From assembly GCA_947507965.1 (NCBI GenBank), contig CANNQU010000005.1:22884-86883 (forward strand): 64,000 nucleotides of DNA, in the 5' to 3' direction. This document shows, one piece after another, positions 8,160-63,988 of this stretch (positions are counted from its first letter, which is position 1; the number at the start of each line of letters is the position of its first letter). The notes beneath the pieces are model-generated. The model did no database searches. It saw only the letters and a list, made by a program, of their open reading frames with translations, and was not told the DNA's origin. A program made the position numbers and the translations under genes. This DNA comes from Bacteroidota bacterium (lineage in GTDB: Bacteria > Bacteroidota > Bacteroidia > UKL13-3).

Positions 8160-8202
8160 AGAAGGCTGGGCATTATTTGAAATAAAGGCTCGTAAAGGAA
8201 TG

Positions 8203-8853: not shown

Positions 8854-8914
8854 GTGATTTGAACTTTGAATATTGTTGGAACCCGTGTTAAGGTTATCTT
8901 CTGATGATTCCAAT

Positions 8915-10192: not shown

Positions 10193-10219
10193 TACGTGTC
10201 AATTCAACATGGTCAACCG

Positions 10220-34312: not shown

Positions 34313-36283
34313 TTAAGGCTTTTCTACTTTTGGATAAATGCGTGTAACCACCAGGTTCTTTCGGGGATTCACCAGAAGTGGAACCTTCTCAATGGTTAGT
34401 GAACTCGTATCCAACCCGAAGGCTTTCGACTCGCTCATCGACAAGCCTTTTAAAGCATCATAACTATCCATGATGAACTCTTCATAAACGGGCAAGTCGT
34501 AGTCGTTGGCCAATTGCCGCTCACTGACTACAAACTTAAAATCGCCGGGTATGTTCTGCTTTTTTAGTGCCTCATAACGGCTGATATTATTGAATTCCTT
34601 CTTTTCAACCATGTCGTCGATGACCTTGCGGAACAAGGCGTTAATGCGTTGCTCCACCCTAAAGCCGAGGTTGAAATCGACACGAAATATTTTTTCTGGC
34701 ACCAACGTATGTACCTCAAACTCCTTTCGGTAAGGGTCATCGCTGACGTTAATATGTAAAAACCAATACACGTCGGCGCGTTTCGGTTGCTTGTTGAGGA
34801 TAGAATACACAATTTTCGATTCTATTAGTTTTGGATTATCGCTAGCCGTAAAATAAACCAAATTGGTGGCCTGCTTGGCGATACTCTCATCATTACTCAC
34901 ATCAATAAATATGGGTAAATATTCCTTGATTTTAAGAAATGAAACAAAGCGCTTCTTAATGACCGCTGCTTTAAACCATACCCACATGATAAAAATAAGT
35001 GCTAAACAAATAAGTAAGGTAACCCATCCACCATGAGGGAACTTTTTTAAGTTAGCAATTAAGAAACAAAGCTCAAGAGAAAGATAACCAATAAGATAAA
35101 ACCACACGAATCCTTTATTCATTCGATGTAAAACAAGGTAATGGGTTACAAGCACTGTAGTAGAAAGCATAGCAAGAGTAATCGCTAAGCCATAGGCTGC
35201 TCCCATATTATCACTCTCTCTAAAAATAAGAACGATTCCAATACAACCGAACATCAAGATCCAGTTAATGCTAGGTACATAAACCTGGCCCCTAGCTTCG
35301 GTAGGAAATTTAATTCGAACTTTTGGCCAAAAATTAAGCCTCATGGCCTCACTTACGATGGTATATGAACCGGTAATTAATGCCTGCGATGCAATGATGG
35401 CAGCCACGGTAGCAATAATAATTCCAATCAATAAAAATTTTTCCGGCATGATGGCGAAAAACGGATTTACCCCACTCCCGATTTCGCGTATTGATTTACC
35501 TTCGAATTGCATAAGCCAGGCGCTTTGCCCGAGGTAGTTACATACCAGGGCGATCTTTACAAAAGTCCAGCTTGCTCTAATATTTGATTTACCACAATGG
35601 CCTAAGTCGCTGTATAATGCTTCTGCTCCAGTGGTACAAAGAAATACGGCACCCAATAGCCAGAAGCCCCCGGGAGTATTTACGACTAAATTAATGGCAT
35701 AATATGGATTCAGTGCGCCAAAAATGGCGGGTTGAATTGCAATTTGGTTCAGACCTAAAACTAAAAGCATGACAAACCAAATGATCATTATTGGGCCAAA
35801 TGATTTTCCGATGATACTAGTACCAAACTGCTGAATAAAGAAAATGGCTACAATAATTCCAATGACAATGGGCACCACGGGGATATCGTATTGGGGATAC
35901 TTCAGGTTTAGCCCTTCAATGGCAGAGGCAACCGAGATTGGAGGGGTTATTAAACCATCGGCCAATAATGCGGCCCCGCCAATTACGGCAGGTATATGCA
36001 ACCATGGCTTGGTACGTCGTACAATAGCATAGAGTGAAAAAATCCCTCCTTCACCTTTATTATCGGCATTGAGTGTAATGATTACGTATTTTAATGTGGT
36101 AAGTAACGTAAGAGTCCAAAAAACACACGACACACCACCATAAACCAATTCCTTGGTTATAATACTGGTACCTATTATTTCCTTGAAAACATAGAGAGGA
36201 GAGGTGCCTATATCACCATAAATAATTCCGAGGGTAATAAGTAAGCCGGCAGAGCTTACCTTGTTTAACTGTAATTTAACCAT
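34313..36283 (-). CDS. kup: KUP/HAK/KT family potassium uptake transporter
   Basis: N-terminal GDIGTSPLYVFKE signature. 656 aa, ~12 TM plus cytoplasmic C-domain. Confidence 0.9.
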   Translation of the reverse strand: MVKLQLNKVSSAGLLITLGIIYGDIGTSPLYVFKEIIGTSIITKELVYGGVSCVFWTLTLLTTLKYVIITLNADNKGEGGIFSLYAIVRRTKPWLHIPAVIGGAALLADGLITPPISVASAIEGLNLKYPQYDIPVVPIVIGIIVAIFFIQQFGTSIIGKSFGPIMIIWFVMLLVLGLNQIAIQPAIFGALNPYYAINLVVNTPGGFWLLGAVFLCTTGAEALYSDLGHCGKSNIRASWTFVKIALVCNYLGQSAWLMQFEGKSIREIGSGVNPFFAIMPEKFLLIGIIIATVAAIIASQALITGSYTIVSEAMRLNFWPKVRIKFPTEARGQVYVPSINWILMFGCIGIVLIFRESDNMGAAYGLAITLAMLSTTVLVTHYLVLHRMNKGFVWFYLIGYLSLELCFLIANLKKFPHGGWVTLLICLALIFIMWVWFKAAVIKKRFVSFLKIKEYLPIFIDVSNDESIAKQATNLVYFTASDNPKLIESKIVYSILNKQPKRADVYWFLHINVSDDPYRKEFEVHTLVPEKIFRVDFNLGFRVEQRINALFRKVIDDMVEKKEFNNISRYEALKKQNIPGDFKFVVSERQLANDYDLPVYEEFIMDSYDALKGLSMSESKAFGLDTSSLTIEKVPLLVNPRKNLVVTRIYPKVEKP

Positions 36284-36360: not shown

Positions 36361-38316
36361 CTATAGTACAGAGTCTTTCATTCGCTTTAATTCTATTTTC
36401 TTACTATGTGTTCCCACTAAAGGAACTTTTTCAACTATTATCGAACTGGTATCTAGGCCATAAGCCTTTGTTTCGCTCAAACCAAAAACCTTTAATACGG
36501 CATAAGTGTCAATAATGAACTCCTCATAAGCAGGTAGCTCATTGTCATTCAATGTTCGATCTATTACCACAAATTTAAAATCGGCTTGGACGTTGTTTTT
36601 CTTTAAACTGTAATAATGACTTAACAAATCAATTTCGCCTTTACCTACCATATCATCAATTGCTATTCTAAAAAGCTGGCTGATTCGCTGTTCCATTCTG
36701 AACCCCAAATTAAAATCTATTCGTATAATTTTTCCTTTCAGGTACTGCGTAATAACATATTCTTTTGTGTAGGGTTCATTGGTAACATTCACATGCAAAA
36801 ACCAATAAACATCAGCTCGTTTAGGCGATTTATTAATGATACTATAGATCACTTTACTTTCGATATATTTCGCATTGTCGGAACCGGTCAAATAAACTAA
36901 ATGGGTACAGAACCTGTTTATTGATTCATCATTACTAATATCAGAAAGTAAATTGAGTTGATCTTTCATTTTCACAAAAGTCATAAATCGCTTTTTTATC
37001 TGTGCTGATTTAAACCACACAAACATGACAAAGGCTATTCCTAAACAAATGATCATAGTTACGTAACCACCTTTAAAAAATTTATCTAAATTAGATGTTA
37101 AAAAGGCCAACTCTAATACGGTGTAGAAGATTAAAAAGAACCACACGAAGACATGATTTACACGTTTCAATACAAGAAAATGTGTTACAAGTACTGTGGT
37201 TGCCAGCATATCAAAATTAATGGTAAGTCCGTACGCTGCTTCCATATTACTTGACTTCTTAAAAACAAAAACGATTGCAATACAGCCTACATAAAGCAAC
37301 CAGTTGATACTTGGCACATATACCTGCCCTTTTGCCTCGCTTGGGTATTTAATTCTGATTCGTGGCCAGAAATTTAGCCTCATGGCTTCACTTACCAACG
37401 TAAAAGTTCCAGTTATCAGAGCCTGGGATGCAATAATAGCCGCCAAGGTAGCAATAATAATTCCTGATAACAAGAACCAATCCGGCATTAAACCATAGAA
37501 AGGAGTTTTCCCAATTTCTGCTAGAGTCCTCCCTTCGTTGCCTAATAGCCAAACGGCCTGCCCGAAATAATTACAGAGCAAGGCAAGTTTTACATAAGCC
37601 CAACTGGCACGAATATTCGGCCGACCACAATGCCCTAAGTCAAGGTACAGAGCTTCGGCGCCCGTTGTACACAAAAACACACCTCCTAAAAGCCAGAACC
37701 CTTCCGGGAAATTAGTCAACAAATTGAAGGCATACCAAGGATTAATCGCTTTCAATACTGTAAAATCTTTGACAATAAAGCTAATTCCCAAGACCAATAG
37801 GGTAGTAAACCAGATAATCATGGCTGGTCCGAAAATTTTTCCAATTATTTTCGTGCCGAATTGTTGGATGAAAAATAAAAGAGTTAGGATAACAATAACA
37901 ATTGTCATCACAGGAATATCAACATTGGGATACTTTTGATGTAACCCTTCTATTGCAGAACTCACTGAAATTGGAGGAGTTATTAACCCATCAGCCAAAA
38001 GTGCAGCACCACCAATGATGGCTGGTATATGCAACCATTTTTTAGTGTGCCGTACAAGGGCATAAAGGGTTAGGTTGCCACCTTCGCCGTTGTTATCGGC
38101 CTGAAGCGTAATAATGACATACTTAAGCGTAGTTATGATAGTGAGAGTCCAGAACACACAACTCAACGCCCCATAAATTAAATCCTTTGTAATAACTTTA
38201 CTCCCGATGATTCCTGGAAATACATATAACGGGGACGTGCCAATATCCCCAAAAATGATTCCAATGGTTATTAGCAACCCAATCCCACTAAGTTTCGAAC
38301 GGTTAGATTTTATCAT
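36361..38316 (-). CDS. kup: KUP/HAK/KT family potassium uptake transporter (tandem paralog)
   Basis: GDIGTSPLYVFPGIIG signature. 651 aa. It is colinear with the downstream copy, with roughly 60% identity by eye. Confidence 0.9.
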   Translation of the reverse strand: MIKSNRSKLSGIGLLITIGIIFGDIGTSPLYVFPGIIGSKVITKDLIYGALSCVFWTLTIITTLKYVIITLQADNNGEGGNLTLYALVRHTKKWLHIPAIIGGAALLADGLITPPISVSSAIEGLHQKYPNVDIPVMTIVIVILTLLFFIQQFGTKIIGKIFGPAMIIWFTTLLVLGISFIVKDFTVLKAINPWYAFNLLTNFPEGFWLLGGVFLCTTGAEALYLDLGHCGRPNIRASWAYVKLALLCNYFGQAVWLLGNEGRTLAEIGKTPFYGLMPDWFLLSGIIIATLAAIIASQALITGTFTLVSEAMRLNFWPRIRIKYPSEAKGQVYVPSINWLLYVGCIAIVFVFKKSSNMEAAYGLTINFDMLATTVLVTHFLVLKRVNHVFVWFFLIFYTVLELAFLTSNLDKFFKGGYVTMIICLGIAFVMFVWFKSAQIKKRFMTFVKMKDQLNLLSDISNDESINRFCTHLVYLTGSDNAKYIESKVIYSIINKSPKRADVYWFLHVNVTNEPYTKEYVITQYLKGKIIRIDFNLGFRMEQRISQLFRIAIDDMVGKGEIDLLSHYYSLKKNNVQADFKFVVIDRTLNDNELPAYEEFIIDTYAVLKVFGLSETKAYGLDTSSIIVEKVPLVGTHSKKIELKRMKDSVL

Positions 38317-44193: not shown

Positions 44194-45021
44194 ATGAAAC
44201 TACTCCATCTTTTTATTTTCAGTGTAACCGGCATACCATTTCTTAAAGCACAGCCTTCCACCATTCAAAGCGACTCGCGTAATATTTACATCCATCAGGC
44301 CGTGTACGAACGCAATCCTGTGCCATGGCCTTATTTGCCAGAACGCGATGTGTTTATTTGCAAGCATGTTGAACGTATGATAGATACCCGAGAGAAGATG
44401 AATTTAGTTATGCGCTGGCCGCAGCAACCTTTAATGGAAGTTATTTATAAGGCATTAAAGGAAGGAAAAATACATGCATACAAAACCGCTGCCTTAGATT
44501 CTGTATATGATGCCGACTATGCGCGAATGATTGGTTCGGTTACTCGCACGGTAACCGAACAATTAAGCGAAGATGAATTTAACACCAGAGAAACGCCGGT
44601 GACATCGGCAATGAATGCAAGCGACATTAAAAAATTTAAGGTCCTGGAAAACTGGATTTTCGACCGTAATACAGGGGAATCTTACACCCGAATATATGCC
44701 ATCGCACCCATTTACAATTTAACGGTTTCGGGCTATTCCATTGGCGAGCAGCCTGCCTTTTTCCTAAGCTATCAGGAGTGCCGTAAACTATTTGTTAATA
44801 CCGAAGTTTTCAACCGAACGAATGATGCCGGACGGCTCACCTACGACGATTTCTTTGAGCAGCGCATGTTTAGTAGTTATATATTAAAAACAAGTAATGT
44901 ATTTGACCTTGCCATACGCGATATGGAAGAGTTTAAACTGGATGGCGTGGAGGCACTAATAGAAGGGAATGCGCTGAACGAAAATCTACTTAACACCGAA
45001 CATGATATGTGGGAAAATTGA
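44194..45021 (+). CDS. GldN/PorN-like protein (gliding motility / type IX secretion ring component homolog), stand-alone
   Basis: Signal peptide. The region NPVPWPYLPERDVFICKHVERMIDTREKMN resembles the conserved GldN/PorN N-terminal block (P-x-PY-x-RE-DV-W-x-KR-x-WR-x-ID-x-REK-N) as I recall it. 275 aa, a size typical for GldN. No gldKLM genes are adjacent. Confidence 0.35.
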   Translation: MKLLHLFIFSVTGIPFLKAQPSTIQSDSRNIYIHQAVYERNPVPWPYLPERDVFICKHVERMIDTREKMNLVMRWPQQPLMEVIYKALKEGKIHAYKTAALDSVYDADYARMIGSVTRTVTEQLSEDEFNTRETPVTSAMNASDIKKFKVLENWIFDRNTGESYTRIYAIAPIYNLTVSGYSIGEQPAFFLSYQECRKLFVNTEVFNRTNDAGRLTYDDFFEQRMFSSYILKTSNVFDLAIRDMEEFKLDGVEALIEGNALNENLLNTEHDMWEN

Positions 45022-45424
45022 AGACTACAGCTATTGCAGTAACAAGATAACAACCCCTTCTCTCCGTAATTAATCAATAGATTCTCGGCTCCTTCCTATT
45101 TCGTAATCTCTACCAGGCTGCTAATCCGCCTTTCGCAGAAAATAGGTTTATAAATCAAAGCATCATCACAACGTCCAATCCAATAGGTTCCTTCTTCTTC
45201 CATTTTTATTTTTTTATTCGAAATATTTTACGTTATCTTGTATCGTATTATCATTACATGAAGAAATTAATCACGTCCAACTTTCGGCGCAATCTTTTTA
45301 TTTCCAAATAATTTTTTTAAGAGAACTTAAAAAGCAGGATTTGTGTTGGAATAAAGTGAGCAAAGAAATAGCGTTAAATAAAACTTCATTTTACTGATTT
45401 CAGATAAAATAAATCAAACTAAAG

Positions 45425-46615
45425 ATGAACCCATTACAAAAAAAGATGGAGGCCTATACGAGTCCTCAGCAAGTGAAAGAACAAGGATTCTATCCTTTTT
45501 TTAAGGCCATTGAATCAGCACAAGATACGGTGGTGCAACTCAATGGAAAAAAGGTTCTGATGTTCGGATCAAACAGCTACTTAGGGTTAACGAATCATCC
45601 ATTAATAAAAGAAGCCGCCATTAATGCCATAAAAAAATATGGTACCGGTTGTGCTGGTTCTCGTTTTTTAAACGGCACTATCGACCTACACAATAAGTTA
45701 GAACATGCCTTATCTCAATTTGTTGGAAAGGAGTCGGCAATTGTTTTTAGCACCGGGTTTCAAGCTAATTTGGGAGCCGTTTCGGCACTTACCGGCAGGC
45801 ACGATTACCTTGTCATCGACGACGCAGATCACGCTTCCATTATTGATGGATGCCGCCTCTCGTTTTCAAAAGTGATTAAATTCAAGCATAACGATATGGT
45901 TTCGCTTGAAAAAGAACTCAAAGCGTTACCGGAAGATAAAATCAAACTCATCATCATTGATGGGGTGTTTAGTATGGAAGGGGATATTGCAAAATTGCCT
46001 GAGATTGCACGAATATCGGCAAAATACAATGGAAGCATCATGGTTGATGAAGCCCATTCCCTTGGTGTGATTGGCAAAAATGGGTCTGGTTCCGTAGCAC
46101 ATTTTGGTTTAACAAGCGAAGTAGATGTTATTATGGGAACGTTTAGCAAGTCATTATCAACTGTTGGAGGTTTTATCGCTGCCGATGAAGCCACTATCAA
46201 CTATCTGAAACATACCTCACGCTCCTTAATTTTTAGTGCCAGTATTTCACCGGCCAATGCGGCCAGTGCTCTCACCGCATTAGAAATTGTAAAAGCAGAA
46301 CCAGAACGAATAGAACAGCTTTGGAGCAATACGCATTATGCAATGAAGCAACTGAAAGACCGTGGATTCGACATTGGAAAAACGGAGACCCCTATTATTC
46401 CGATCTATGTTCGTGACGATACAAAAACATTTATGTTAACGCAAATGTTGCTCGATGATGGCGTTTTTGTCAACCCTATTATCTCGCCAGCGGTGCGAAG
46501 TGACTCTTCCCTAATACGCTTTTCGCTCATGGCGACCCATACTTTTGAACAGATCGATATTGCTATTGGAAAAATACATAAAATTGCCTCACAGCTAGGA
46601 ATTGCTTCAAAATAA
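45425..46615 (+). CDS. Alpha-oxoamine synthase family PLP-dependent acyltransferase, serine palmitoyltransferase-like (or cysteate acyltransferase-like)
   Basis: PLP-lysine block GTFSKSLSTVGGF (SPT/BioF/Kbl family; the S-K-S-L/V-G-G form is closest to SPT). Also the glycine-rich N-terminus, HASIIDG and D-E-A-H-S-x-G. 396 aa, the same length as Bacteroides SPT. Confidence 0.8.
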   Translation: MNPLQKKMEAYTSPQQVKEQGFYPFFKAIESAQDTVVQLNGKKVLMFGSNSYLGLTNHPLIKEAAINAIKKYGTGCAGSRFLNGTIDLHNKLEHALSQFVGKESAIVFSTGFQANLGAVSALTGRHDYLVIDDADHASIIDGCRLSFSKVIKFKHNDMVSLEKELKALPEDKIKLIIIDGVFSMEGDIAKLPEIARISAKYNGSIMVDEAHSLGVIGKNGSGSVAHFGLTSEVDVIMGTFSKSLSTVGGFIAADEATINYLKHTSRSLIFSASISPANAASALTALEIVKAEPERIEQLWSNTHYAMKQLKDRGFDIGKTETPIIPIYVRDDTKTFMLTQMLLDDGVFVNPIISPAVRSDSSLIRFSLMATHTFEQIDIAIGKIHKIASQLGIASK

Positions 46616-46631
46616 TAATCTAAATCTAACC

Positions 46632-47753
46632 ATGATTACCATAAAAAAAGTTTCATCCTCAAAAGACCTGGCGGATTTCATTGACTTCCCGCATCATTTA
46701 TATAAAGGGGATGTGAATTATGTACCCGAACTTTTTATTGCACAACGAGATTTGCTGAGTGTAAAAAAACATCCTTTTTTCAAGCATTCAAAACTTGATT
46801 TATTTCTTGCCATCAAAGAGGCTAAAATAGTGGGTAGAATTGCGGCCATAAGGAATAACAACCACCTGAAATATACGAGTACAAAAGACGGCTTCTGGGG
46901 ATTCTTTGATGTAATTGAAGATTATGCTGTTGCCGAAAAACTCTTTGATACCGTTTCTGAGTGGGTGAAAAAAGAAGAGCTCACTTCCATCATCGGACCC
47001 GTGAATTTTTCAACGAATGAAACGTGCGGTTTATTAATTGAAGGATTTGATACGCCACCGGTGGTGATGATGACATATAACAAGAACTATTACCCAGAAT
47101 TCATTGAAAAATATGGCTATAGAAAAAAGATGGATCTCATCGCCTATAACCTCAAAACAAGCGAATTATCGGATAGAACAGTGAATTTAGTGGAGCGGCT
47201 GGAGGAGCGATTGAAATTAAGGGGCATCACCATTCGAACCACTAACATGAAAGATTTTGCAAAGGAAGTAACAAAAATAAAAGAAATCTATAACTCCGCC
47301 TGGGATAAGAACTGGGGGTTCGTTCCGATGACGGATGAAGAGTTTGACTTCATGGCTAAAGACATGAAAATGATTCTCGATCCGGATTTTTGCTACCTCG
47401 CTGAGCATCATGGCAAAGCGGTGGGATTCTCTCTTGCCATTCCCGACATGAACCAAGTTTTCATCAAAATAAAAAAAGGAAGACTACTTCCCACAGGGCT
47501 GTTTAAATTGCTTTTTAATAAGAAAAAAGTAAATAAAGTGCGCGTTTTAACTCTTGGAGTTGTAGAAGAATATCGAAAAATGGGGATAGAGGCTTGTTTT
47601 TATGCTCGAAATATAATCACCGCAAAAAAGAAAAATATTCTTTCTGCAGAGGCCTCATGGATACTCGAAACGAACGAGATGATGAATAAGGCATTACTCA
47701 ATATCAATGCCGAACCCTATAAAAAATATAGGATGTATGAATTAGCTTTATGA
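46632..47753 (+). CDS. GNAT-fold N-acyltransferase, candidate bacterial ceramide synthase (bCerS-like) (start at ATG 46632)
   Basis: C-terminal GNAT motif-A-like R-V-L-T-L-G-V-V-E-E-Y-R-K-M-G-I-E and upstream HHGKAVGFSLAIPD. ~374 aa, with 17 bp between the spt-like stop and this start. Confidence 0.45.
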   Translation: MITIKKVSSSKDLADFIDFPHHLYKGDVNYVPELFIAQRDLLSVKKHPFFKHSKLDLFLAIKEAKIVGRIAAIRNNNHLKYTSTKDGFWGFFDVIEDYAVAEKLFDTVSEWVKKEELTSIIGPVNFSTNETCGLLIEGFDTPPVVMMTYNKNYYPEFIEKYGYRKKMDLIAYNLKTSELSDRTVNLVERLEERLKLRGITIRTTNMKDFAKEVTKIKEIYNSAWDKNWGFVPMTDEEFDFMAKDMKMILDPDFCYLAEHHGKAVGFSLAIPDMNQVFIKIKKGRLLPTGLFKLLFNKKKVNKVRVLTLGVVEEYRKMGIEACFYARNIITAKKKNILSAEASWILETNEMMNKALLNINAEPYKKYRMYELAL

Positions 47754-47754
47754 G

Positions 47755-48750
47755 ATGAAAAAAGTTTTAATAACTGGGGCAAGTGGTTTCATCGGGAGTT
47801 TCATGGTAGAGGAAGCTCTAAGAAGAAACTATGATGTTTATGCTGGTATTAGAAAATCAAGCAGCACCATCTACCTTACCGATACGAGAATAAAATTGGT
47901 GGAACTCGACTTTTCAGATGTTGAGGTACTACGGGAAAAACTGAATAAACTTCCCTACTTCGATTATATTATTCATAATGCAGGACTCACAAAAGGTTTA
48001 AAGAAGCAGGACTATTTTACTTCAAATTACGAATACACCAAAAATTTCATAGCGGTATTAATAAGCCTGAATCGTATTCCGAAAAAATTTATTTATATGA
48101 GTAGCCTTGCAGCCTTCGGCCCCGGCGACCCATTACTACTGCAGGCCGTAAAAGTTTCCGACAGACCCCAACCGGTTACCTCCTATGGGGAAAGCAAACT
48201 CGCGTCGGAAAACTTTATAACGTCATTGCTCAACTTTCCCTATATCATCATACGACCTACTGCAGTATATGGGCCGAGAGAAAAAGATCTTCTCACCGTA
48301 TTTAAACTCATCAATAGTAACCTGGAGCTTTTCGTTGGATTCAAAAAACAACACTTGACTTTTGTGTATGTATCCGACCTTATAACGGCTGTATTTCTGG
48401 CCATGGAATCAACGATTATTAACAGAGGCTATTTTGTGAGTGATGGGCATGTGTATGATGGGAAAATGTTTGGAAATAGTATTAAAATGCAACTCCAGAA
48501 AAAGACCCTTCGTCTGCACCTTCCTGTCGTTTTTGTTCGATTGATTGCCATTCTTTCTGAGGCGACAAAATACATCCGACGGAAACAACCCGTGCTAAAC
48601 CTTGAAAAAATTAAAGAGCTGGAATCCACCAATTGGAAATGCGATATTCAGCCTTTGCTCGATGATTTAAATTTTAAGCCCGAATATAATTTGGATAGAG
48701 GTATTCAAGAAACCACGGCCTGGTATAGAAAAGAAAAGTGGTTGAAATAA
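47755..48750 (+). CDS. NAD(P)-dependent epimerase/dehydratase-family (extended SDR) reductase, candidate 3-ketosphinganine/oxidised-ceramide reductase (CerR-like)
   Basis: Rossmann N-terminus MKKVLITGASGFIGSFMVEEAL and Y-x3-K (SYGESK). The start is 1 bp after the upstream stop. Confidence 0.65.
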   Translation: MKKVLITGASGFIGSFMVEEALRRNYDVYAGIRKSSSTIYLTDTRIKLVELDFSDVEVLREKLNKLPYFDYIIHNAGLTKGLKKQDYFTSNYEYTKNFIAVLISLNRIPKKFIYMSSLAAFGPGDPLLLQAVKVSDRPQPVTSYGESKLASENFITSLLNFPYIIIRPTAVYGPREKDLLTVFKLINSNLELFVGFKKQHLTFVYVSDLITAVFLAMESTIINRGYFVSDGHVYDGKMFGNSIKMQLQKKTLRLHLPVVFVRLIAILSEATKYIRRKQPVLNLEKIKELESTNWKCDIQPLLDDLNFKPEYNLDRGIQETTAWYRKEKWLK

Positions 48751-48768
48751 TATTATTCTTTTAGCGCT

Positions 48769-49446
48769 ATGAATTGGTTTTTTTTAACTTTTTTCCCTGC
48801 TTCCTTCACTGCACTAAAAGCAAATTGGAGAATAGCGCTGGGTCAGTCCTCCTTTAGGATACAAGCCATTATTACGTTACTTATTTCACTTCTTATCGGT
48901 TTTTATATTTCCAACTTTCTCTTGTTTATTGAGTCACGACCAGGGCATAGCATTTCCGACTTCATTTTAAATACAATCGAAGCTCGAGACCTTTCATTGC
49001 CAATATTTATCTTGCTTTATTCTGCCATCTGTATCGCCATCATCAATTTGAGTGCAACACCCGTGCATTTTTTAAAAGCGATACAAGCCTATTGCCTTTT
49101 AATCATCATACGTATGTTTTGCATTTATCTGTTTCCGTTGGAGCCCGACCAATCCATGATTCCTTTAACAGATCCTTTTGTAGGCCGTTTTTTTTATAGT
49201 GACACCATCATTGTCAAAGACTTGTTTTTTTCGGGGCATGTTTCAACCTTATCGTTGTTAGTGCTGGCCACCCCTTATCCACGACTGAAATACTGTTTTA
49301 TTACCGCAACGGCACTCGTTGCCGGTTTTATTTTAGTACAGCATGTTCATTATACGATCGACGTGCTTGCGGCTCCTTTTTTCTCTTGGGGATGTTATAC
49401 CCTTGTATCGAAGTTAGGGCTACACCAAAATAAGGGAGCAGAATAA
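48769..49446 (+). CDS. Sphingomyelin-synthase-like PAP2 family phosphotransferase (candidate ceramide phospho-head-group transferase)
   Basis: Contains SMS D3-like KDLFFSGHVS (compare C-G-D-x3-S-G-H-T) and D4-like HVHYTIDVLAAPFF (compare H-Y-T-x-D-V-x3-Y). Six TM helices, 225 aa. Confidence 0.55.
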   Translation: MNWFFLTFFPASFTALKANWRIALGQSSFRIQAIITLLISLLIGFYISNFLLFIESRPGHSISDFILNTIEARDLSLPIFILLYSAICIAIINLSATPVHFLKAIQAYCLLIIIRMFCIYLFPLEPDQSMIPLTDPFVGRFFYSDTIIVKDLFFSGHVSTLSLLVLATPYPRLKYCFITATALVAGFILVQHVHYTIDVLAAPFFSWGCYTLVSKLGLHQNKGAE

Positions 49447-49552
49447 AAAATTAAATATACCCTCATTTTTCCAATTTATAAACCCTGCGCGTTGTTTTTT
49501 GGAGTTTAAAAACAACCTTACATCTTCAAAAGAGGAGGCACTTGTTTTAATA

Positions 49553-50275
49553 TCATCTCTCCTCTTTACCTATCGTTACCGAGATGATTATATAGGCCAG
49601 AATAATAAGTGGCAAGGCCTTGAATTGAAGTGCTGCCAGAAGTATCGCTGCGACACCCAATAATATATAACGTGCTTTATTCGAGGTAAAATCGTAGGTC
49701 TTAAACTTCAGGGAAATCAATTTTAGATCAGAGAGCATTAGATAACATAAACCTAAAACAAGAAAAATTAATGTTATGGGGTGCACTAAAAAATTGCTCA
49801 ATCGTTCTGAGGTATGGGAATCGAATACAATGAAAGGTAATGCTGCTACAATAAAACCCATGGAAGGTACCGGCAATCCAATAAATCCTTCCGACTGCCG
49901 GGTGTCGATATTGAACTTTGCCAAGCGCCAAGCCGACCCACAGGGGATTAAAAAGGCAACAAAAGAATACCAGTTTCTCATTGGATCGTAATCGATCGTT
50001 AAAAAAGTACTGTTGAAATAGAATAGCGTAAAAACGATGAATCCCGGTGCCACCCCAAAACTAACGACATCAGCCAATGAGTCAAGTTGTTTTCCAATAG
50101 GAGAATACGAATCCGTCATCCGAGCCACCAACCCATCTAAGAAATCAAACACCGAAGCAGCCATAATAAAAAGTGCGGCCATTTGTAAGTCGATACGAAT
50201 GCAATAGAGTATCGAAAGACAGCCACAAATTAAGTTGAGGCAGGTTACCATATTGGCAAGATTTTTTTTTATCAT
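49553..50275 (-). CDS. pssA: CDP-alcohol phosphatidyltransferase, phosphatidylserine-synthase type
   Basis: CDP-OH-P motif D-G-x2-A-R-x8-G-x3-D-x3-D (DFLDGLVARMTDSYSPIGKQLDSLADVVSFG). 240 aa polytopic. Confidence 0.75.
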   Translation of the reverse strand: MIKKNLANMVTCLNLICGCLSILYCIRIDLQMAALFIMAASVFDFLDGLVARMTDSYSPIGKQLDSLADVVSFGVAPGFIVFTLFYFNSTFLTIDYDPMRNWYSFVAFLIPCGSAWRLAKFNIDTRQSEGFIGLPVPSMGFIVAALPFIVFDSHTSERLSNFLVHPITLIFLVLGLCYLMLSDLKLISLKFKTYDFTSNKARYILLGVAAILLAALQFKALPLIILAYIIISVTIGKEER

Positions 50276-50336
50276 AATGGGTTACGTAATTCGTATTCAA
50301 GAACAACAATAATGGCATTTAAAAATCACCTAAAAC

Positions 50337-51659
50337 TTATTTCTCATACAACTTACTCTTATCAACAACCAGTAGCTTGTCTTTATCTTTCAAGGTACGA
50401 GAAATGGCAGAATACGGTCCTGATATAATTTTAATCTTTTCGGAGAGCGTGGAGGTAATCTCTATGAATTTATCATCCTGAATCCCAGTCTGAACTTGCA
50501 CTTTCTTCGCGTTGCCAGCACTATCTACCATAAAAACAATTTGCTCCAAATCGTCGCGAGAAGTACTGATTTTATCTGTTGTTTTTTTCTTCTCCGTTTC
50601 ATTTTTATCTCGCGTGCTTACACATTCAATCGGCACGCAGAGAACGCCTTCTTTCCTACCTGTTTCAATATCAACTGTTGCGTTCATTCCGGCCCTAAAT
50701 GGCGATTCGTTGGCGGCAAGCTTCGATTTAATCTCAGCGTATGATTGGGGCACTACTCGTATTTTCACTTCGAAGTTCGTTGCTTGATCAGCGCTAACCG
50801 ATAAGGATGATTTTGCTGCATTGGCAATTTCATAAACGACTCCAACAAATTTTTTGCCCGGATAAGCATCCACCTCAATTTTTGAAGAATCGCCACGTTG
50901 TATATGTACGATATCATTTTCATTAACATCGACGATAACCATCATAAAGTTTAAATCGGCAATACGCATCATTTCTGTCCCTGCCATTTGCGATGTTCCC
51001 ACCACCCGTTCTCCGCGCTGTACCTTTAATCCATAGATAGTGCCTTCCTTAGGCGCCATAATGGTGGTCTTGTTTAAATTATCGGTTGATTCTTTTAAGG
51101 AAGCCAGTGCGCTTGTGATGGCAAATTCGGCTCCTCTAATGGTTTGATTTGCAGCCTCCACTTGCGCTTTTGCTACGTCGAAGGATGATTTACTTGCTTC
51201 TAATTCAGCATCACTGATTGCTTTCTGAAAATGCAACGAGGTGTTACGTTTATAGGAGGCCTCTTCGGCAATCCATCGGGCATCGGCTTGAGCCTTACTA
51301 GCCTTAGCATTCGCTAGCTGGGCTCTGGCTTGATCAACACTAGCCGCAATACGGTCTTGTTGCGACTGATAAATTTGAGGGTTCACTTTCGCAAGTACTT
51401 GTCCTTGTTGAACATAATCGCCATCTTTCACAAAGAGTTCCGTAATTTCACCGGAGATATCCGAAGATATTTTCACCTCATTTTCGGGCTGAATTTTCCC
51501 ATTCGCCGCTACCATTTCAATAATGGTACGATATTCGGGTGATACCACTGAAACTTTGATTCCTTTTTTTGCGTTAATCCAACCTGCTTTCTTACCGATA
51601 AAAGCAACAACCACCAATAGGATGACGATGCCCAACAACCACCAAATAATACGTTTCAT
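50337..51659 (-). CDS. HlyD/MacA-family periplasmic adaptor (membrane fusion) protein
   Basis: N-terminal TM anchor (IIWWLLGIVILLVVVAFIG), a long alpha-helical hairpin with A/Q-rich heptads (…ARAQLANAKASKAQADARW…) and beta-barrel/lipoyl-like flanks. 440 aa. Confidence 0.8.
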   Translation of the reverse strand: MKRIIWWLLGIVILLVVVAFIGKKAGWINAKKGIKVSVVSPEYRTIIEMVAANGKIQPENEVKISSDISGEITELFVKDGDYVQQGQVLAKVNPQIYQSQQDRIAASVDQARAQLANAKASKAQADARWIAEEASYKRNTSLHFQKAISDAELEASKSSFDVAKAQVEAANQTIRGAEFAITSALASLKESTDNLNKTTIMAPKEGTIYGLKVQRGERVVGTSQMAGTEMMRIADLNFMMVIVDVNENDIVHIQRGDSSKIEVDAYPGKKFVGVVYEIANAAKSSLSVSADQATNFEVKIRVVPQSYAEIKSKLAANESPFRAGMNATVDIETGRKEGVLCVPIECVSTRDKNETEKKKTTDKISTSRDDLEQIVFMVDSAGNAKKVQVQTGIQDDKFIEITSTLSEKIKIISGPYSAISRTLKDKDKLLVVDKSKLYEK

Positions 51660-51669
51660 ATTTTAAAAT

Positions 51670-53079
51670 TTATAGTGTGATATTTATACCTCTGTAAAAA
51701 TCGATTATTTTACTCTTTAAAAGCAAGTCGTACTTGGCTTGCTGCAGGTTTATTTCCGCTCTGGCTTTATTATTTTTCGAAGTAATGAAATCGAGGTAGC
51801 TGCTCACCCCCTGCCGATAACGGAGTTCGGTATTGGCATAATACGTACTTTGAGCGGTCAGATTTTTTTGTGCCGCTGTGTATTTCGCTATGGCTGCCTG
51901 TACATCGGTTATGGCTTGCTGTATGTTTTTCAATAAAATGTTTTTTGTCTGAGCAAAATTCAGATCTTGATTAGCTAAATTAATTTTCGATTTCTGCAGA
52001 TTGCCGGCAACTTTTAAATTATTAAAAATAGGAACCGTAAGACTCAACGAAATATATTTTCCAAAGTTCTGGTTTAGCTGGTCGTTAAAAGGTACCGAAG
52101 AGAAATTGCTCTTGTATTGGGGAGCAAACACGGTGTCTAAAGAAGTCTTGGTTAAACCGATTGGAGTAATACCAACAAAAGTAGAGCCGTTATACATGAC
52201 ATATTTATTACTATACAAGGTATTCAATCCACCCGACAAAGTAAACCGGGGCGACAGGCTTCCGAAGGCTATTTTTTGAGTCACCCTGGCTGCATCCTTA
52301 CGTAGCTGAGCTCCCTTCACTTCCGGGCGATTTAGCAAGGATTGTTCATAGATGACATTGACATCATATTGCTCAGCCAAAGGAAGTGCAATATTAGGTC
52401 GTTCAATCTTAAAATTGTTCGTTGCCGGCAATTCCATCAACTGAAGAAGGGTTAATTTCGCCGTTATAATGCCATTTTGCGCCATCTGAACATTGTATTC
52501 ATCGTTAGCTTGTTGGGCGTCTTGTTCATAAAGAGCACTTTCGGCAAGTTTCCCGGCTTTTACAAGAATATCGGTGTGAGATCGTTGACCTTGGGTAACC
52601 TCCAATTGTGAATAGGCATTGCTTAAATTATCTTCTGCGTACATAACCTGTAAAAAGGCAGCAGCTACTTGTAACGAAAGATCGTTTTGCTGAGCTGAAA
52701 CATCGGTTTGTGTTGCTTCAAAATTTAACTGCGCGAGTTTTAAGTTATTTAAAAGCTGAAAGCCATTGAACAAAATAACATTGCTATTCACCCCCACATT
52801 TGCCGATTGTGAACTGTTGCTAATATACGCATTGGTAACAGGATCTATATTTCTACCATAGTTAAAGTTTTGGCTGAAAGAGGCATTTAAGTTAGGAAGC
52901 ATCGCTGCCTTACTTGTTTTAACATCTATCTTGGTACTAAGTAAATTAAGCTGTGCCTGTTTCAAGCGAATATTATTCCGCAATGCCGTTTCGATACATT
53001 GCTGCAGTGAGTAAGGCTGCTGAGCAGTTGTTACCAACGAACAAAATAATAAAATAATTAAAATTCGAATCCCTTTCAT
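51670..53079 (-). CDS. TolC-family outer-membrane efflux protein
   Basis: Signal peptide, 469 aa, two internally repeated halves rich in Q/L/A/N heptads with interspersed beta-strand segments. It is immediately upstream of the HlyD-like gene (10-bp gap). Confidence 0.8.
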   Translation of the reverse strand: MKGIRILIILLFCSLVTTAQQPYSLQQCIETALRNNIRLKQAQLNLLSTKIDVKTSKAAMLPNLNASFSQNFNYGRNIDPVTNAYISNSSQSANVGVNSNVILFNGFQLLNNLKLAQLNFEATQTDVSAQQNDLSLQVAAAFLQVMYAEDNLSNAYSQLEVTQGQRSHTDILVKAGKLAESALYEQDAQQANDEYNVQMAQNGIITAKLTLLQLMELPATNNFKIERPNIALPLAEQYDVNVIYEQSLLNRPEVKGAQLRKDAARVTQKIAFGSLSPRFTLSGGLNTLYSNKYVMYNGSTFVGITPIGLTKTSLDTVFAPQYKSNFSSVPFNDQLNQNFGKYISLSLTVPIFNNLKVAGNLQKSKINLANQDLNFAQTKNILLKNIQQAITDVQAAIAKYTAAQKNLTAQSTYYANTELRYRQGVSSYLDFITSKNNKARAEINLQQAKYDLLLKSKIIDFYRGINITL

Positions 53080-57762: not shown

Positions 57763-60700
57763 ATGATGAGATTAAAATTTCTAATAGCAGTAATTTTTTT
57801 TACAGGTATTAACGCCTTTGCGCAAACATTTAAAAGTTTCTCCCAGGATACCGGCGTTTACATCAGAGAGTTGGGAGAGTTTATGAATCAAGACAAAAGC
57901 GAGGAAGCGGGCAAAACATACCAAGCGTTTCTTACCGAATGGAACAAAAAGGTATTGACGGATGAACAAAAACGTTTCATCTTGCGTATCAGCAACAAAA
58001 TGCTACTCGAAAAGCTACGTGCTAACCCAGATTTTGTATCACTACTCAAAGCGCTATCGGCCTATTCAAGGCAAGATAAAGGAGAAGCTATTTTTGCAAA
58101 TTGGCAGAAAATAACGGATAAAACATTATCGGAAAATAAGAAGACGTTTAAAGATTTTCTCGACTTTTCGATTAGCCTCTTTGAAGACAATACTATTTTT
58201 TCTAATAATGCAAAAATTTGGCAATGTACGAGTGCCGATTACGAATTAAAATTCGATCGGGAACCGTATATCATATTCCATCATACCGACTTGAAAGGCT
58301 TCGCCAATGGCAATAACACCAAAATCTCAAATACTTCTGGAATCTATTATCCCAATAGGAAGCTATGGGTTGGTGAAGGTGGGAAAATAAACTTTCTACG
58401 AGTGGGCTTAGACACCAATAAGGTATGGGTTGATTTAGTGAATTACAAGGTGAACACCGACAAATATGAGTTCACCATCGATTCAGCATTTCTCACCAAT
58501 AAAGAGTATAAGATTGAAAATATTGCCGGGCGCCTTACAGAAAAGCTAGTTTCCACCAATGAAACATCCCATTTAAACTATCCAAAATTTCGTTCTTATA
58601 GCAACGATATTTTCATCGAAAATTTTGGCAAAGGAATGAAATATAAAGGAGGCTTTGGTATGTATGGGAAACAGATTGCTGGAATTGGAACAATCGACCA
58701 AAGGGCATCCTTCTCTTTTTATTATAAAGACTCGTTACGTTGTAAAATTGAATCGGTTGAATTTTTCATCTCTAATGAAAAAATTGCTGCAGAAGATAGC
58801 CGATTCAATGTTTTTATTGCGAAAGATTCCTTGTTTCATCCTAAAATGAAATTTAACTTCCTTCGAAAAGATAGAAAATTATCGCTCGCGCGTGGAGAGG
58901 AAGGCGTGCGATCGAGCCCACTCTATGATTCCTATCATCGTATTGAAATGTATGTCGATGAAGTTAATTGGCAGATTGATGGCCCAAAGATGGATTTTAT
59001 AATGAACACGAAAGACCAGTCGGCACGTTTTGAATCGTTAAGTTTTTTTAGAGACCAACGCTATGAGCAAATGCAAGGGGTATTAGATTACAACCCCTTG
59101 ACCAAAGTTGCACAGTTTTGTCGAATGCGAAGGTCTCCTGATTTTACCTTAGAAGAATTTGCTGCTTTTATGGGTGCCAAAGAAGAATATGTTTTGCCCT
59201 TTGTATTGCTTATGGCCGATAAAGGTTTCTGCAATTATGATATCGACAATAAAAAGATTCATGTTTATAATAAGGTTTACGATTATGTGAATGCACATAA
59301 TAACGTATCTGACTATGATATCCTTAAAATGGAATCGCTTATTGGAGCCCGACCCAATGCCACGATGAATTTCGTAAACTATGATCTAACAGTGGAAGGA
59401 GTGCCTAGGCTTCAAATTAGCGACTCACAAAATGTTTATGTGATATTAAACGATCAGAAATTGATTATTAAAAAAAATAGAGATATGGAGTTTGCGGGAA
59501 AGGTGCATGCCGGAAGATTCGATTTCTATGGCGCGGGATTCGATTTCGACTATCAGAACTTTCTCATTAAACTCAGTAATGTTGATTCCTTAAAATTTGC
59601 ATTCCCTTCCAGAGAAAAAGATGAGCTGGGTAGAGATCAACTGGTACGGGTAAACACCGTTTTACAAAATGTTTATGGCACCTTATATATCGACTCGGCA
59701 AACAATAAATCAAGCCGTATAAATTATCCTCAGTATCCTATTTTTAAAAGTGATAAAGGCTCCAACGTTTTTTACGACTACCCCACCACCCAAGGAGGTG
59801 CATACGTAAGAGAACGTTTCTATTTTAAGGTTGATCCCTTTACCATTGACAGTCTTGACAACTTCACAAGAGAAGGTTTGGTATTCGACGGTGAATTTAA
59901 ATCGGGTGGCATTGTTCCTGACTTTCGCCACCAACTTACCTTACAAGATGATTATTCGTTAGGCTTTAAAACCCACACTCCTGCTGGCGGCTACCCACTC
60001 TTCAAAGGTAAAGGAAGAGGAGATTTCGAAATGAGCTTGAGTAATTTTGGTTTCTTTGGGAATGGCTCTATAGACTACCTAACGACGCACCTCACTTCGA
60101 ATAAATTTTTATTCCTACCCGACTCGATGAATACCATAGCCGATGAGGTGGTCGTAAATAAGTCAGCCTTGTTTCCATCAGCAACCACTCATAGTGCCTA
60201 TGTCGATTGGCGTGCCTACCGCGACACCATGTATCTGTTTCAACAGAAAGAACCTTTCCTGATGTACGACAAGGTGGCAACATTGCTAGGCAACTTAATT
60301 ATTACTCCTAAAGGGATGGGAGGAGCCGGTACCATTTCCTTTGATGAAGCGGAACTATCCTCTAAAAACTTTTCGTTTTCAAACCATACCTTCAGCTCCA
60401 ATGTGGCCTCCTTTAAAATTAAGTCCATCGACCCTTCTAAATATGCCTTTAGTGCTACTAACGTAAAGGCATTTGTTGATTTTGAAAAACGTTATGCCGA
60501 CTTTAGATCCAACAAATCTGATGTTAATATTGAGTTCCCTTACAACCAGTATCGTGCCACATTAAGTGATATGACATGGAAAATGGATGAAAAGAAAATC
60601 ATATTGAATGCAGGAAAAACACAGACTCCCGAATCTTCTGTTTTCATCTCTACTTTGTATGAGCAGGACTCTTTGAATTTCATCTCTACCAACGCCGTAT

Positions 60701-62249: not shown

Positions 62250-62616
62250 GGGGCTGACCGGTTTTGACGGGTAGTGTAACGTAGGTGTAAGCATGCAGAG
62301 ATTTGTTTGCGTTCTCTTTAATCAATACATTCAACATTTAGTTGGCAACAACTACGCATTGGCTGCTTAATCTGGATAGATTAGGACGCTCGCACTCACT
62401 AAGTTTCTAAATCGTGCCGAGACTTGTATAGTGGGTTCACCAAGCATGGTATTACTCGCGAAATGGGTTTTGATAGCGAGTAGATTATATAAAACCTACG
62501 TTTATGTTTCTGGTATGCGGCACGCCAAACACAAACCGACAACTAAGTACAGCTAAGCATGTAGAAAACATTTGAGTTCCTATTTCGGACTCGGGTTCGA
62601 CTCCCGACAGCTCCAC
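62250..62616 (+). ncRNA. ssrA: tmRNA (ssrA)
   Basis: 5-prime GGGGCTGACCGGTTTTGACGG matches the tmRNA acceptor/D-arm start. The 3-prime GGACTCGGGTTCGACTCCCGACAGCTCCAC is a T-arm plus acceptor (CCA not encoded). An internal tag reading frame at 62344-62370 encodes G-N-N-Y-A-L-A-A-stop (ggc aac aac tac gca ttg gct gct taa), the classic degradation tag. Confidence 0.85.
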
Positions 62617-62649
62617 TTTTTACGATTTTAAACGTTCGCAAAAGTTCAA

Positions 62650-62773: not shown

Positions 62774-63988
62774 ATGGATATAACTACAGGACTCAGTTTT
62801 AAATTTTACTTACAAACCAATAAGAGCAGGGGCGACGGGAAACATCCCATCTATTTACGTCTCGTTTATAAAAGCAAAAAGATCGAAATTGCCACCGATT
62901 ATGATTGCGAAGAGCAAGACTTCAATATTCAGCAGCAAAGAACCATAAGGAACCATGCTATCAATGAGGGTCTGACCAAAATGGAGGCAAAAATCCATAG
63001 TTCGGTAAGGAAACTCGAAGATGCAGGGGCTTTTATCGACCTTTCTGCTATAAAAGACGAATTGAAGGGGAAGAGTAAGTTTGATAAAAAACTGTTGGAG
63101 TATTATAACGAACATCTAAAATATGTCCAGAGCAATCCACAACTGGCAAAAAACACCAAGAATAGATATCTCGATACCCAGAAGCATTTGATCAAGTTTA
63201 TTAAGAGCATAAAGAAACGAAGTGATGTTTCGATTGAAAGTGTAGACTATAAATTCATCAGTGACTTTGATCTGTTTCTTTTAAATCAGCCATCAGGCAA
63301 AACCCTAACAAGCACCCTGCATAGAAATACTGCCAATAAGCATATTACGCGATTTAAAACGGTGATCTTGAAAGCTTTCAATGAGGGGATTATTAAAAAA
63401 AACCCATTCACGAATATTCGTGTGAAATATACCCCTACAACAATCACATATTTAACTCAGGAGGAATTAGATATGCTTGAAGCGCATGATTTAAGCGGGA
63501 ATGAAAGCCTTCAAAAATCCAGAGATATTTTCTTGTTCAGCTGTTATACCGGACTACGTTTCAAGGATGCATTGAGCTTAGAAATGGATAAAATTGTTTT
63601 CTCCAAAACCAACGGGAACAGTATCAGACTAAAACAGGAGAAGACAGATGAATACGTTGAAATGCCCGTCTTGAAACAAACACAAGCCATAATTGACAGG
63701 CATGATGGAGAGTACCGTAAAATTACCGGTAAGGTTTTACCACAAATAAGTAATCAGAAGGTGAATGCATTTTTAAAAATGATTGCTGACGCGGTTGGAA
63801 TTAAAAAAAGACTCACCCATCATATGGCCCGACATACATGTGCGACAACGGTATTGCTAAGTCAAAATGTGCCACTTGAAGTGGTAAGCAAATGGCTGGG
63901 GCATAATAGCATTAAGTCAACCCAGGTGTATGGCAAGATCACCAATAAATATATGATGGAACATGCAAAAAGACTGAACGAAAAATAA
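62774..63988 (+). mobile_element. int: Tyrosine site-specific integrase (Bacteroidota phage-integrase family), first gene of an element integrated at ssrA
   Basis: 404 aa. The C-terminal catalytic region is HHMARHTCATTVLLSQNVPLEVVSKWLGHNSIKSTQVYGKI (R...H-x-x-R...Y with LGH and QVY). An N-terminal SAM-like/arm domain is present. It starts ~160 bp downstream of the tmRNA 3-prime end. Confidence 0.85.

Follow-up and report, generated by a model that had tools for sequence, protein, structure and literature searches.

Does a short gene cluster of an uncultured member of the Bacteroidota encode a complete route to a phosphosphingolipid, from the condensing enzyme to the enzyme that attaches the head group? 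This question is raised by four co-directional genes located on the plus strand at positions 45425-49446 of a 64,000-nt stretch of DNA (hereafter the window) from Bacteroidota bacterium (UKL13-3), assembly GCA_947507965.1, contig CANNQU010000005.1, positions 22,884-86,883 of the forward strand. Bacterial sphingolipids shape the properties of the outer membrane as well as host immunity. To our knowledge, beyond Spt, CerS, CerR and inositol-phosphoceramide (IPC) synthase, most of the enzymes responsible for head-group addition still await assignment. We consider it rather probable that the four genes form a single transcription unit for de novo phosphosphingolipid synthesis. Genes 1 to 3 probably constitute a further core set of the Spt/CerS/CerR type. 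The locus as a whole represents a prediction that is well supported, easily testable and in principle not surprising. For gene 4, which encodes a membrane protein of the PAP2_C family, we propose with slightly less than even confidence that its bacterial family represents bona fide ceramide phosphotransferases, forming ceramide phosphoethanolamine or ceramide phosphoglycerol, and that it is one of at least five interchangeable cassettes behind an spt-cerS-cerR core whose GNAT slot has been swapped in this lineage.

All four open reading frames (ORFs) proposed by a preceding inspection of the letters (the sequence-only reading) were present on the plus strand. Two of the intergenic gaps it had given, 1 and 18 bp, were exact; the remaining one, given as 17 bp, measured 16 bp. 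This value applies to a gene 2 starting with the ATG at position 46632. The mechanical ORF list placed the start at a TTG (46602) inside the end of gene 1, but the ATG was preferred because 32 aligned homologues begin at the methionine it encodes. The family assignments of the four proteins were reproduced by Pfam and NCBIfam searches, and the motifs quoted by the sequence-only reading were found as well, namely the pyridoxal phosphate (PLP)-lysine block GTFSKSLSTVGG in gene 1 and FFSGHVS and HYTIDV in gene 4. The window consists of ordinary chromosomal DNA with ~39% GC, and an identical contig is present in a Logan metagenome assembly.

Judged by its scores and active-site residues, gene 1 encodes a serine palmitoyltransferase (SPT). 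Besides the Pfam family Aminotran_1_2 (3e-59), the protein matched NF047600, the equivalog model of the Bacteroidota-type SPT, with 686.6 bits (cut-off 640). The NCBIfam models for the beta- and alphaproteobacterial SPT, Kbl and BioF all stayed under their own cut-offs, so that a BioF or Kbl identity was rejected. The best match in the PDB was the SPT of Sphingobacterium multivorum (3a2b/8guh) with 527 bits and 59% identity in a gapless alignment over 387 aa. Structures of cysteate acyltransferases reached 237 bits (28eh) and 231 bits (7u7h), the other solved relatives at most 254 bits (Kbl) and 203 bits (BioF). The PLP lysine is K242 within GTFSKS; this block is the same as in the S. multivorum enzyme and had rightly been called SPT-like. 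Thirty residues past K242, A272 aligns with the alanine of S. multivorum Spt in FSAS. According to Radka et al. (PMC9304779), SulA and Spt differ in their active sites only at SulA Lys281, which is an alanine in Spt, and all known SulA enzymes carry this essential lysine. A272 corresponds to the position of Lys281, the SulA register being deduced from the equal +30 spacing and not from a direct alignment. The sequence-only reading had stated that the condensing enzyme alone cannot separate SPT from cysteate acyltransferase. In the present case it can, by the equivalog score, by 527 versus ~235 bits and by Ala272.

Comparative context provided the strongest evidence for the pathway reading. Metagenomes were scanned with gene 2 as an anchor, and the best 80 loci were analyzed. 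Spt was located directly upstream of the gene 2 homologue in 53 of the 65 loci that had enough flanking sequence, and a short-chain dehydrogenase/reductase (SDR) of the Epimerase family directly downstream in 50 of 71. Within 3 kb after this core, 32 of 47 loci contained a gene for myo-inositol-phosphate synthase (MIPS). The commonest cassette, MIPS-PgpA-GtrA-CDP-OH_P_transf/DUF4833-FA_hydroxylase-PAP2_3, in which DUF4833 is fused to the CDP-alcohol phosphatidyltransferase, was present in most loci and also in the cultured Chitinophaga agri (L002:6795-17182), where the spt-GNAT-SDR core shows the same order. As IPC synthase requires ceramide, the three genes upstream of this cassette would have to supply it. 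Alternative cassettes at the same place (loci L084-L163, e.g., L146, L097 and L162) comprised a small CDP-alcohol phosphatidyltransferase together with GtrA, an NTP_transferase with CDP-OH_P_transf and LPG_synthase_TM, or two GT4 glycosyltransferases. With PAP2_C included, at least five kinds of head-group cassette occur behind the spt-GNAT-SDR core, and gene 4 sits exactly at the cassette position.

The same order of all four genes recurred in three other lineages (L004, L166 and L167), which argues against a chance juxtaposition. L004 belongs to the nearest genome, a 'Kiruna' Bacteroidetes metagenome-assembled genome (MAG); L166 and L167 were found via closer metagenomic homologues, and their flanks are entirely different from those of the window. 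The compact single operon described by the sequence-only reading is thus real, but its compactness is not unusual. A tight spt-GNAT-SDR operon is the norm in the environmental Bacteroidota sampled outside the Bacteroidales, and only the PAP2_C cassette is rare (four lineages). In a passage of PMC11334938 that cites Stankeviciute 2022, spt, cerS and cerR are described as dispersed in sphingolipid-producing Bacteroidota; this statement holds for the Bacteroidales studied and not for the environmental lineages sampled here.

Gene 2 is a candidate bacterial ceramide synthase, which would add the amide-linked acyl chain. Its match to Pfam Acetyltransf_1 was weak (23.8 bits), and none of the NCBIfam models matched. 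The AlphaFold2 model (pLDDT 89) disclosed a tandem-GNAT fold without transmembrane segments, as expected for a soluble N-acyltransferase, and the best Foldseek matches in the PDB were tandem-GNAT amine N-acyltransferases, among them glucosamine N-acetyltransferase, MshD and N-myristoyltransferase (NMT)-like proteins (E 2e-13 to 1e-9). The GNAT fold that had been assigned to a protein of ~374 aa was thereby found, the length being 373 aa from the ATG. The family is large, with 10,721 clusters (50% identity) at E <= 1e-3 and 2,299 at E <= 1e-30. One of its members, P0277 (780 aa, L165:7003-11258), is a natural Spt::tandem-GNAT fusion, which lies in a high-GC genome and is flanked by an Epimerase-family SDR gene upstream and by a PAP2_3 gene. 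Another, P0356 (940 aa, L164:8001-11050), is a fusion of a tandem GNAT to an AMP-binding (acyl-adenylate-forming) domain and is followed by a 61-aa ORF resembling an acyl carrier protein (ACP). The protein P0243 (784 aa) resembles two tandem copies of the GNAT protein.

The GNAT proteins encoded in the gene 2 slot of L166 (3735-4853) and L167 (3856-4974) showed only 29-32% identity to gene 2, whereas gene 1 and gene 3 were 75-78% and 65-72% identical, respectively, between these loci and the window. They belong to a subfamily (type B) that is found beside PAP2_C elsewhere; the GNATs of the window and L004 are of type A, as in the inositol-type operons. Because of the far higher identities of genes 1 and 3, one of the two lineages appears to have exchanged its N-acyltransferase for a paralogue at the same site. 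The data suggest an in-situ swap of the GNAT slot between two paralogous tandem-GNAT subfamilies of ~29% identity.

Gene 3 is a candidate CerR-like reductase for the 3-keto group of the long-chain base. The protein belongs to the Epimerase family (PF01370, 7.6e-29), in line with its earlier description as a reductase of the NAD-dependent epimerase/dehydratase family, and contains the Rossmann motif GASGFIGS (residues 7-14) and YGESK at 144 with the catalytic Tyr/Lys. None of the NCBIfam models reached its cut-off; the best match was HpnA, a hopanoid-associated epimerase, with 71.7 bits versus 367.65. An SDR of this type is kept downstream of the GNAT gene whichever head-group cassette follows, which argues against a sugar-nucleotide enzyme. 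CerR was reportedly placed in the Epimerase family of Pfam by Stankeviciute et al. in 2022. Elsewhere it is called only 'a dehydrogenase' (PMC11324152). The N-terminus of gene 3, MKKVLITGASGFIG, leads straight into the Rossmann motif and contains no signal peptide, and for this reason the protein is probably cytoplasmic.

Gene 4 is a candidate ceramide phospho-head-group transferase. Its function is the least secure step of the pathway, since the majority of PAP2_C homologues have no spt gene beside them. The protein scored 33.3 bits with PAP2_C (PF14360, gathering cut-off 27, residues 151-211) and did not match the classical PAP2 family PF01569. Its model (pLDDT 90.6) consists of six long, predicted transmembrane helices, and the top three Foldseek matches were SMSr with ceramide, IPC synthase with ceramide and Aur1, the sphingomyelin synthase (SMS)/SMSr fold being the nearest structure. 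The catalytic residues are H157 (D3 motif, FFSGHVS) as well as H194 and D198 (D4 motif, HYTIDV). They reside within the blocks DLFFSGH and QHxHYxxD, which are invariant in 30 homologues (40-62% identity) and align with GDYMFSGH and HEHYSIDV of SMSr. Score, residues and model bear out the earlier description of a six-helix membrane protein carrying the SMS D3 and D4 motifs. The D1 (PLPD) and D2 (RRx8YxxRx6TxLP) motifs aligned only below threshold, lnDvlLn with LPDIFLD and llRiitlyllPL with LLRCFTMFVTSL of SMSr; D64, R115, P123 and L124 are invariant in the 30 bacterial homologues. A search with the single sequence of gene 4 against solved structures found nothing, and SMSr was the sole match of the family profile in the whole PDB (E 0.0026). 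Of the motif set of lipid phosphate phosphatases (C1, Kx6RP; C2, PSGH; C3, SRx5Hx3D), Kx6RP was absent from gene 4 and from all 30 aligned homologues, and SRx5Hx3D was absent from gene 4. The charge distribution, although only modestly biased, fits a cytoplasmic N-terminus, and the catalytic loops probably face the periplasm. Our literature search, the coverage of which was incomplete, so that it yields absence of evidence only, revealed no function assigned to a bacterial PAP2_C/SMS-like protein or ceramide phosphotransferase. In the papers covered, no enzyme was named for phosphoethanolamine dihydroceramide, the dominant Bacteroides sphingolipid (PMC10191378, PMC10056535, PMC9246714; coverage incomplete).

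To what extent gene 4 is linked to the core was studied on its homologues, which occur in at least 586 species, many of them Ignavibacteriota; the best 80 species-representative genomes were inspected. Across L004, L166 and L167, gene 4 is 55-63% identical to its counterpart in the window (55-56% in L166 and L167). In L168, whose gene 4 homologue is 49% identical, the four-gene order was not present. In Chryseolinea, Saprospiraceae and Cyclobacteriaceae (L005:6871-8639, L008:4206-5934, L028:6877-8621), PAP2_C is immediately preceded by a type B tandem-GNAT gene, with no spt within 8 kb; the two genes could form an acyltransferase/phosphotransferase module of their own. Other PAP2_C homologues in Bacteroidota, Chlamydiae and Kapaibacteria (L013, L017, L014, L027, L009, L049, L057, L038, L063) recur beside an adh_short SDR resembling mycolate reductase, a dioxygenase of the PhyH family and sometimes DUF4833. 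The association of gene 4 with the core is real but limited to a part of the gene 4 family. We also noted that the operon of L166 is flanked by further genes of a lipid type. It is preceded by divergent genes for an Exo_endo_phos protein, which has the neutral sphingomyelinase fold, and an Mpo1-like protein (783-2194); the genes that follow it encode one Phosphodiest protein and two PAP2 proteins of small size (6807-11220).

Several observations weigh against a ceramide phosphotransferase in a dedicated sphingolipid operon. The source organism is an uncultured MAG, known here from its genes alone, and genes 2 and 3 were placed with CerS and CerR by family, fold and context. Gene 3 has no signal peptide, while CerR of Caulobacter is periplasmic (PMC11087976); this is not decisive because the export signal of the Caulobacter protein is itself undefined. 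Only one of the 80 best gene 4 loci, the nearest relative L004, contained spt-GNAT-SDR beside the homologue, and gene 4 was absent from all of the best 80 gene-2-anchored loci. Many homologues in Ignavibacteriota and other phyla have unrelated neighbours, so the family may act on other acceptors, and the top matches included none from Bacteroides and Porphyromonas, the classic producers of ceramide phosphoethanolamine. Gene 4 resembles SMSr in sequence only within the D3/D4 region. Furthermore, enzymes of the SMS family also hydrolyse glycerophospholipids in the absence of ceramide (PMC7988496, PMC8648842).

One alternative is that genes 1-3 make dihydroceramide and gene 4 is a hydrolase, either phospholipase-C-like or a lipid-phosphate phosphatase, which would release diacylglycerol from phosphatidylethanolamine or phosphatidylglycerol, or dephosphorylate ceramide-1-phosphate or sphinganine-1-phosphate, and thereby regulate flux without decorating ceramide. 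We think this unlikely, given that Kx6RP is missing from every aligned member, that the score exceeds the cut-off of the SMS-specific PAP2_C model, that gene 4 occupies a slot used elsewhere by head-group-adding cassettes and that its best structural matches are ceramide-bound transferases. Gene 4 might instead be a mere neighbour that acts on a glycerolipid or another alcohol and reached its position by a lineage-specific accident. Among the best 80 genomic loci, 76 have neither an spt operon nor a tandem-GNAT gene beside the homologue, those of Ignavibacteriota have an esterase and unrelated genes as neighbours, and gene 4 is the least conserved member of the operon (55-63% identity versus 75-88% for gene 1). 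Yet the adjacency is kept in four lineages with completely different flanks, the 18-bp gap argues for co-transcription, and tandem-GNAT paralogues precede PAP2_C in three more families. Moreover, the recurrent neighbours are of a lipid type: an adh_short SDR similar to mycolate reductase occurs in 11 loci, a PhyH dioxygenase in six and DUF4833 in three. We therefore regard a fortuitous neighbour as quite improbable.

The two remaining alternatives concern the core. Sulfonolipids are known in gliding Bacteroidota, a paralogue of GldN is encoded directly upstream of the locus, and cysteate acyltransferases are near relatives of Spt (PMC9304779); hence the operon might make a capnine-type sulfonolipid, in which case gene 1 would be a cysteate-fatty-acyl transferase, and acylation and reduction of 3-ketocapnine would fall to genes 2 and 3. 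This route was rejected and is extremely improbable, because gene 1 scores at the level of SPT (527 bits, above the equivalog cut-off, versus 231-237) and carries alanine at the position of the essential SulA lysine. In addition, a C1 sulfonate would leave no site for a phosphotransferase or IPC synthase, yet such genes follow the core. This agrees with the preference of the sequence-only reading for a sphingoid over a capnine-type product. The other alternative leaves the products unchanged and affects the order of reactions only: as in eukaryotes, gene 3 would reduce 3-ketosphinganine in the cytoplasm before gene 2 N-acylates sphinganine, instead of acylation first and reduction of keto-ceramide afterwards as in Caulobacter and B. 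fragilis. It would suit the probable cytoplasmic location of gene 3, as late reduction in Caulobacter was argued from its periplasmic CerR (PMC11087976), and it has a parallel in B. thetaiotaomicron and B. ovatus, which accumulate sphinganine and use KDSR (PMC9278070; bioRxiv 10.1101/2023.05.23.541633). However, the KDSR BT_0972 is a classical adh_short SDR, unlike the Epimerase-family gene 3 (PMC9278070), and in B. fragilis the knockout of CerS leads to accumulation of 3-ketosphinganine and that of CerR to keto-dihydroceramide (bioRxiv 10.1101/2023.05.23.541633). A eukaryote-like order thus appears somewhat unlikely. The position of the acyltransferase gene before the reductase gene carries no weight for either order.

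Taken together, we prefer a pathway in which gene 1 would form 3-ketosphinganine by condensation of L-serine and an acyl thioester. This thioester is probably acyl-CoA, the donor reported for Spt of Bacteroidota (PMC11324152), since genes for an ACP (AcpR) or an acyl-ACP synthetase (AasR) are not present at the locus. The soluble tandem-GNAT enzyme would N-acylate the long-chain base and the extended SDR would reduce the C3 ketone with NAD(P)H, both activities resulting in dihydroceramide. The His157/His194/Asp198 triad of gene 4 may then take the phosphorylated head group from a glycerophospholipid via a phospho-histidine intermediate, release diacylglycerol and attach the head group at the ceramide C1 hydroxyl. 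With SMSr as the analogue, the likeliest donor is phosphatidylethanolamine, which would yield ceramide phosphoethanolamine; the main alternative is phosphatidylglycerol. The pathway reading is strengthened by the conserved core operon, the swappable cassettes, the Spt-GNAT fusion and the closeness of the gene 4 model to ceramide phosphotransferases.

Table. Features of the candidate sphingolipid operon and its borders (positions in the window)
Feature	Position	Strand	Length	Basis or remark
Gene 1, serine palmitoyltransferase (Spt)	45425-46615	+	396 aa	NF047600, SPT structures, PLP Lys
Gene 2, tandem-GNAT N-acyltransferase, candidate bacterial ceramide synthase	46632-47753	+	373 aa from ATG	fold, context
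Gene 3, extended-SDR reductase, candidate CerR-like 3-keto reductase	47755-48750	+	331 aa	PF01370, motifs, context
Gene 4, six-helix PAP2_C membrane protein, candidate ceramide phospho-head-group transferase	48769-49446	+	225 aa	
AT-rich leader	45022-45424		403 bp	contains candidate promoter/operator block
AT-rich hairpin GTTGTTTTT / AAAAACAAC	49491-49516			8-nt loop; read from sequence
pssA, CDP-diacylglycerol-serine O-phosphatidyltransferase	49553-50275	-		convergent neighbour; TIGR00473

The operon is preceded by a leader with 32% GC, for which an ORF-free length of ~400 bp had been noted. It indeed lacks any ORF of >=80 aa, and on the identical metagenome contig the gene caller placed a 35-aa ORF on its minus strand. 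Rfam searches of the leader matched no family, whereby a riboswitch or other known RNA was rejected. Scans of the leader for sigma-70-like promoters and terminators gave matches at chance level only, and the Bacteroidota -7 box TAnnTTTG was not found there. Compared with the leader of L004, a block of ~65 bp (roughly 45202-45268) is nearly invariant, ATTTTTATTTTTTTAT.CG...GTTATCTTGTAT...TGAAGAAAT, whereas the alignment outside the block has diverged. The conserved block, a candidate promoter or operator, includes an imperfect inverted repeat (CGAAATATTTTACG in the window, ACGGATTATTATCCGT in L004), which could serve as an operator. Directly upstream of the leader, at 44194-45021, resides a gene of the GldN/PorN family (type IX secretion ring subunit), which is not accompanied by gldK, gldL or gldM and is probably a paralogue.

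At the other end, gene 4 and the convergent pssA gene are separated by a spacer of 106 bp, which contains the hairpin. The hairpin was missed by the terminator scan because its stem contains too few G-C pairs, and it is a weakly supported candidate for a bidirectional terminator that would mark the end of the operon. The assignment of pssA is supported by 118.4 bits with its model (cut-off 107). The product of pssA takes part in the synthesis of phosphatidylethanolamine, which might donate the head group. Of the related loci, only L004 has the gene beside the operon (80% identity); it is missing in L166 and L167. Because of this restricted adjacency, pssA gives weak support for phosphatidylethanolamine as the donor, and its membership in the system is uncertain, a weak possibility. 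A minus-strand run of genes (49553-53079) ends with pssA and also encodes an outer-membrane efflux protein (OEP) and a periplasmic adaptor of the RND/MFP type.

The rest of the 64-kb window contains ordinary housekeeping genes and no further lipid genes. Two neighbouring minus-strand ORFs of ~650 aa each (34313-36283 and 36361-38316) encode Kup-type K+ transporters (K_trans) and represent a tandem duplication. A tmRNA gene (62250-62618, 140.8 bits) is followed after 155 bp by a gene for a tyrosine integrase with Arm-DNA-binding and SAM-like domains (62774-63988), as is typical of an island or prophage that has integrated at ssrA; it extends past the end of the window. A 1456-aa ORF (57763-62133) and ORFs of 234-358 aa at 208-1284, 11462-12292 and 15878-16582 had no Pfam match at E <= 1e-5.

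If our proposal for gene 4 is true, the sphingomyelin synthase family would gain its first bacterial member with an assigned role, which would place SMS-type chemistry in bacteria and provide a genetic handle on the bacterial synthesis of phosphosphingolipids other than the inositol type. The compact four-gene unit can be moved into E. coli, which supplies phosphatidylethanolamine and phosphatidylglycerol, for a direct test of a bacterial SMS-like enzyme. The framework of a core with swappable cassettes also allows the sphingolipid class of uncultured Bacteroidota to be predicted from their sequences.

Among the known systems, gene 1 comes closest to the SPT of S. multivorum, with which it shares the PLP-lysine block and the active-site alanine; no sequence-level difference that sets them apart was detected. 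SulA/CapB (7u7h, 28eh; PMC9304779) share the alpha-oxoamine synthase fold and the phylum with gene 1, but differ from it by the low scores and the diagnostic Lys281, and gene 1 stands in a context of enzymes requiring a C1 hydroxyl. Gene 4 has its counterparts in the animal SMS family, especially SMSr/SAMD8, a ceramide phosphoethanolamine synthase (8ijq/8ijr), at ~16% identity. SMSr comprises 415 aa and a SAM domain, whereas gene 4 lacks this domain, is much shorter, aligns weakly at D1 and D2 and is a predicted bacterial inner-membrane protein, characterized here by its sequence and model.

The sequence-only reading had likened the locus to the enzyme set of Caulobacter crescentus, which consists of Spt (CC_1162), CerS/bCerS (CC_1154 = CCNA_01212) and CerR (CC_1164 = CCNA_01222) (PMC11087976, PMC11324152). 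The pathway reading behind this comparison was supported; genes 2 and 3 are linked to their proposed Caulobacter counterparts by family, fold and context. Both systems would combine the same three activities, a PLP-dependent condensing enzyme, a soluble N-acyltransferase and an NAD-type reductase, encoded by genes clustered near spt. Caulobacter, however, additionally needs AcpR (ACP) and AasR (acyl-ACP synthetase), its cerS is several genes away from spt whereas the three genes of the window are contiguous, its head groups (phosphoglycerate and sugars) are added by enzymes unrelated to gene 4, and its CerR is exported to the periplasm. In B. fragilis, CerS (BF9343_4218) and CerR (BF9343_4240) were validated by knockouts (bioRxiv 10.1101/2023.05.23.541633). 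This species belongs to the same phylum and shares the proposed steps and an acyl-CoA-type Spt; its genes, in the account of the Bacteroidales given in that passage of PMC11334938, are dispersed and not united in one operon. The validated IPC cluster BT_1522-BT_1526 of B. thetaiotaomicron, with the PAP2-type, AUR1-like BT_1522 as IPC synthase (PMC9246714), is likewise a head-group module for dihydroceramide built around a transferase of the PAP2 superfamily, and its counterpart is the MIPS cassette of Chitinophaga agri and the 32 loci described above. The window contains neither MIPS nor PgpA, a CDP-alcohol transferase or PAP2_3, but a single PAP2_C gene in their place, which implies that an existing phospholipid would be used directly as the donor without dedicated precursor synthesis.

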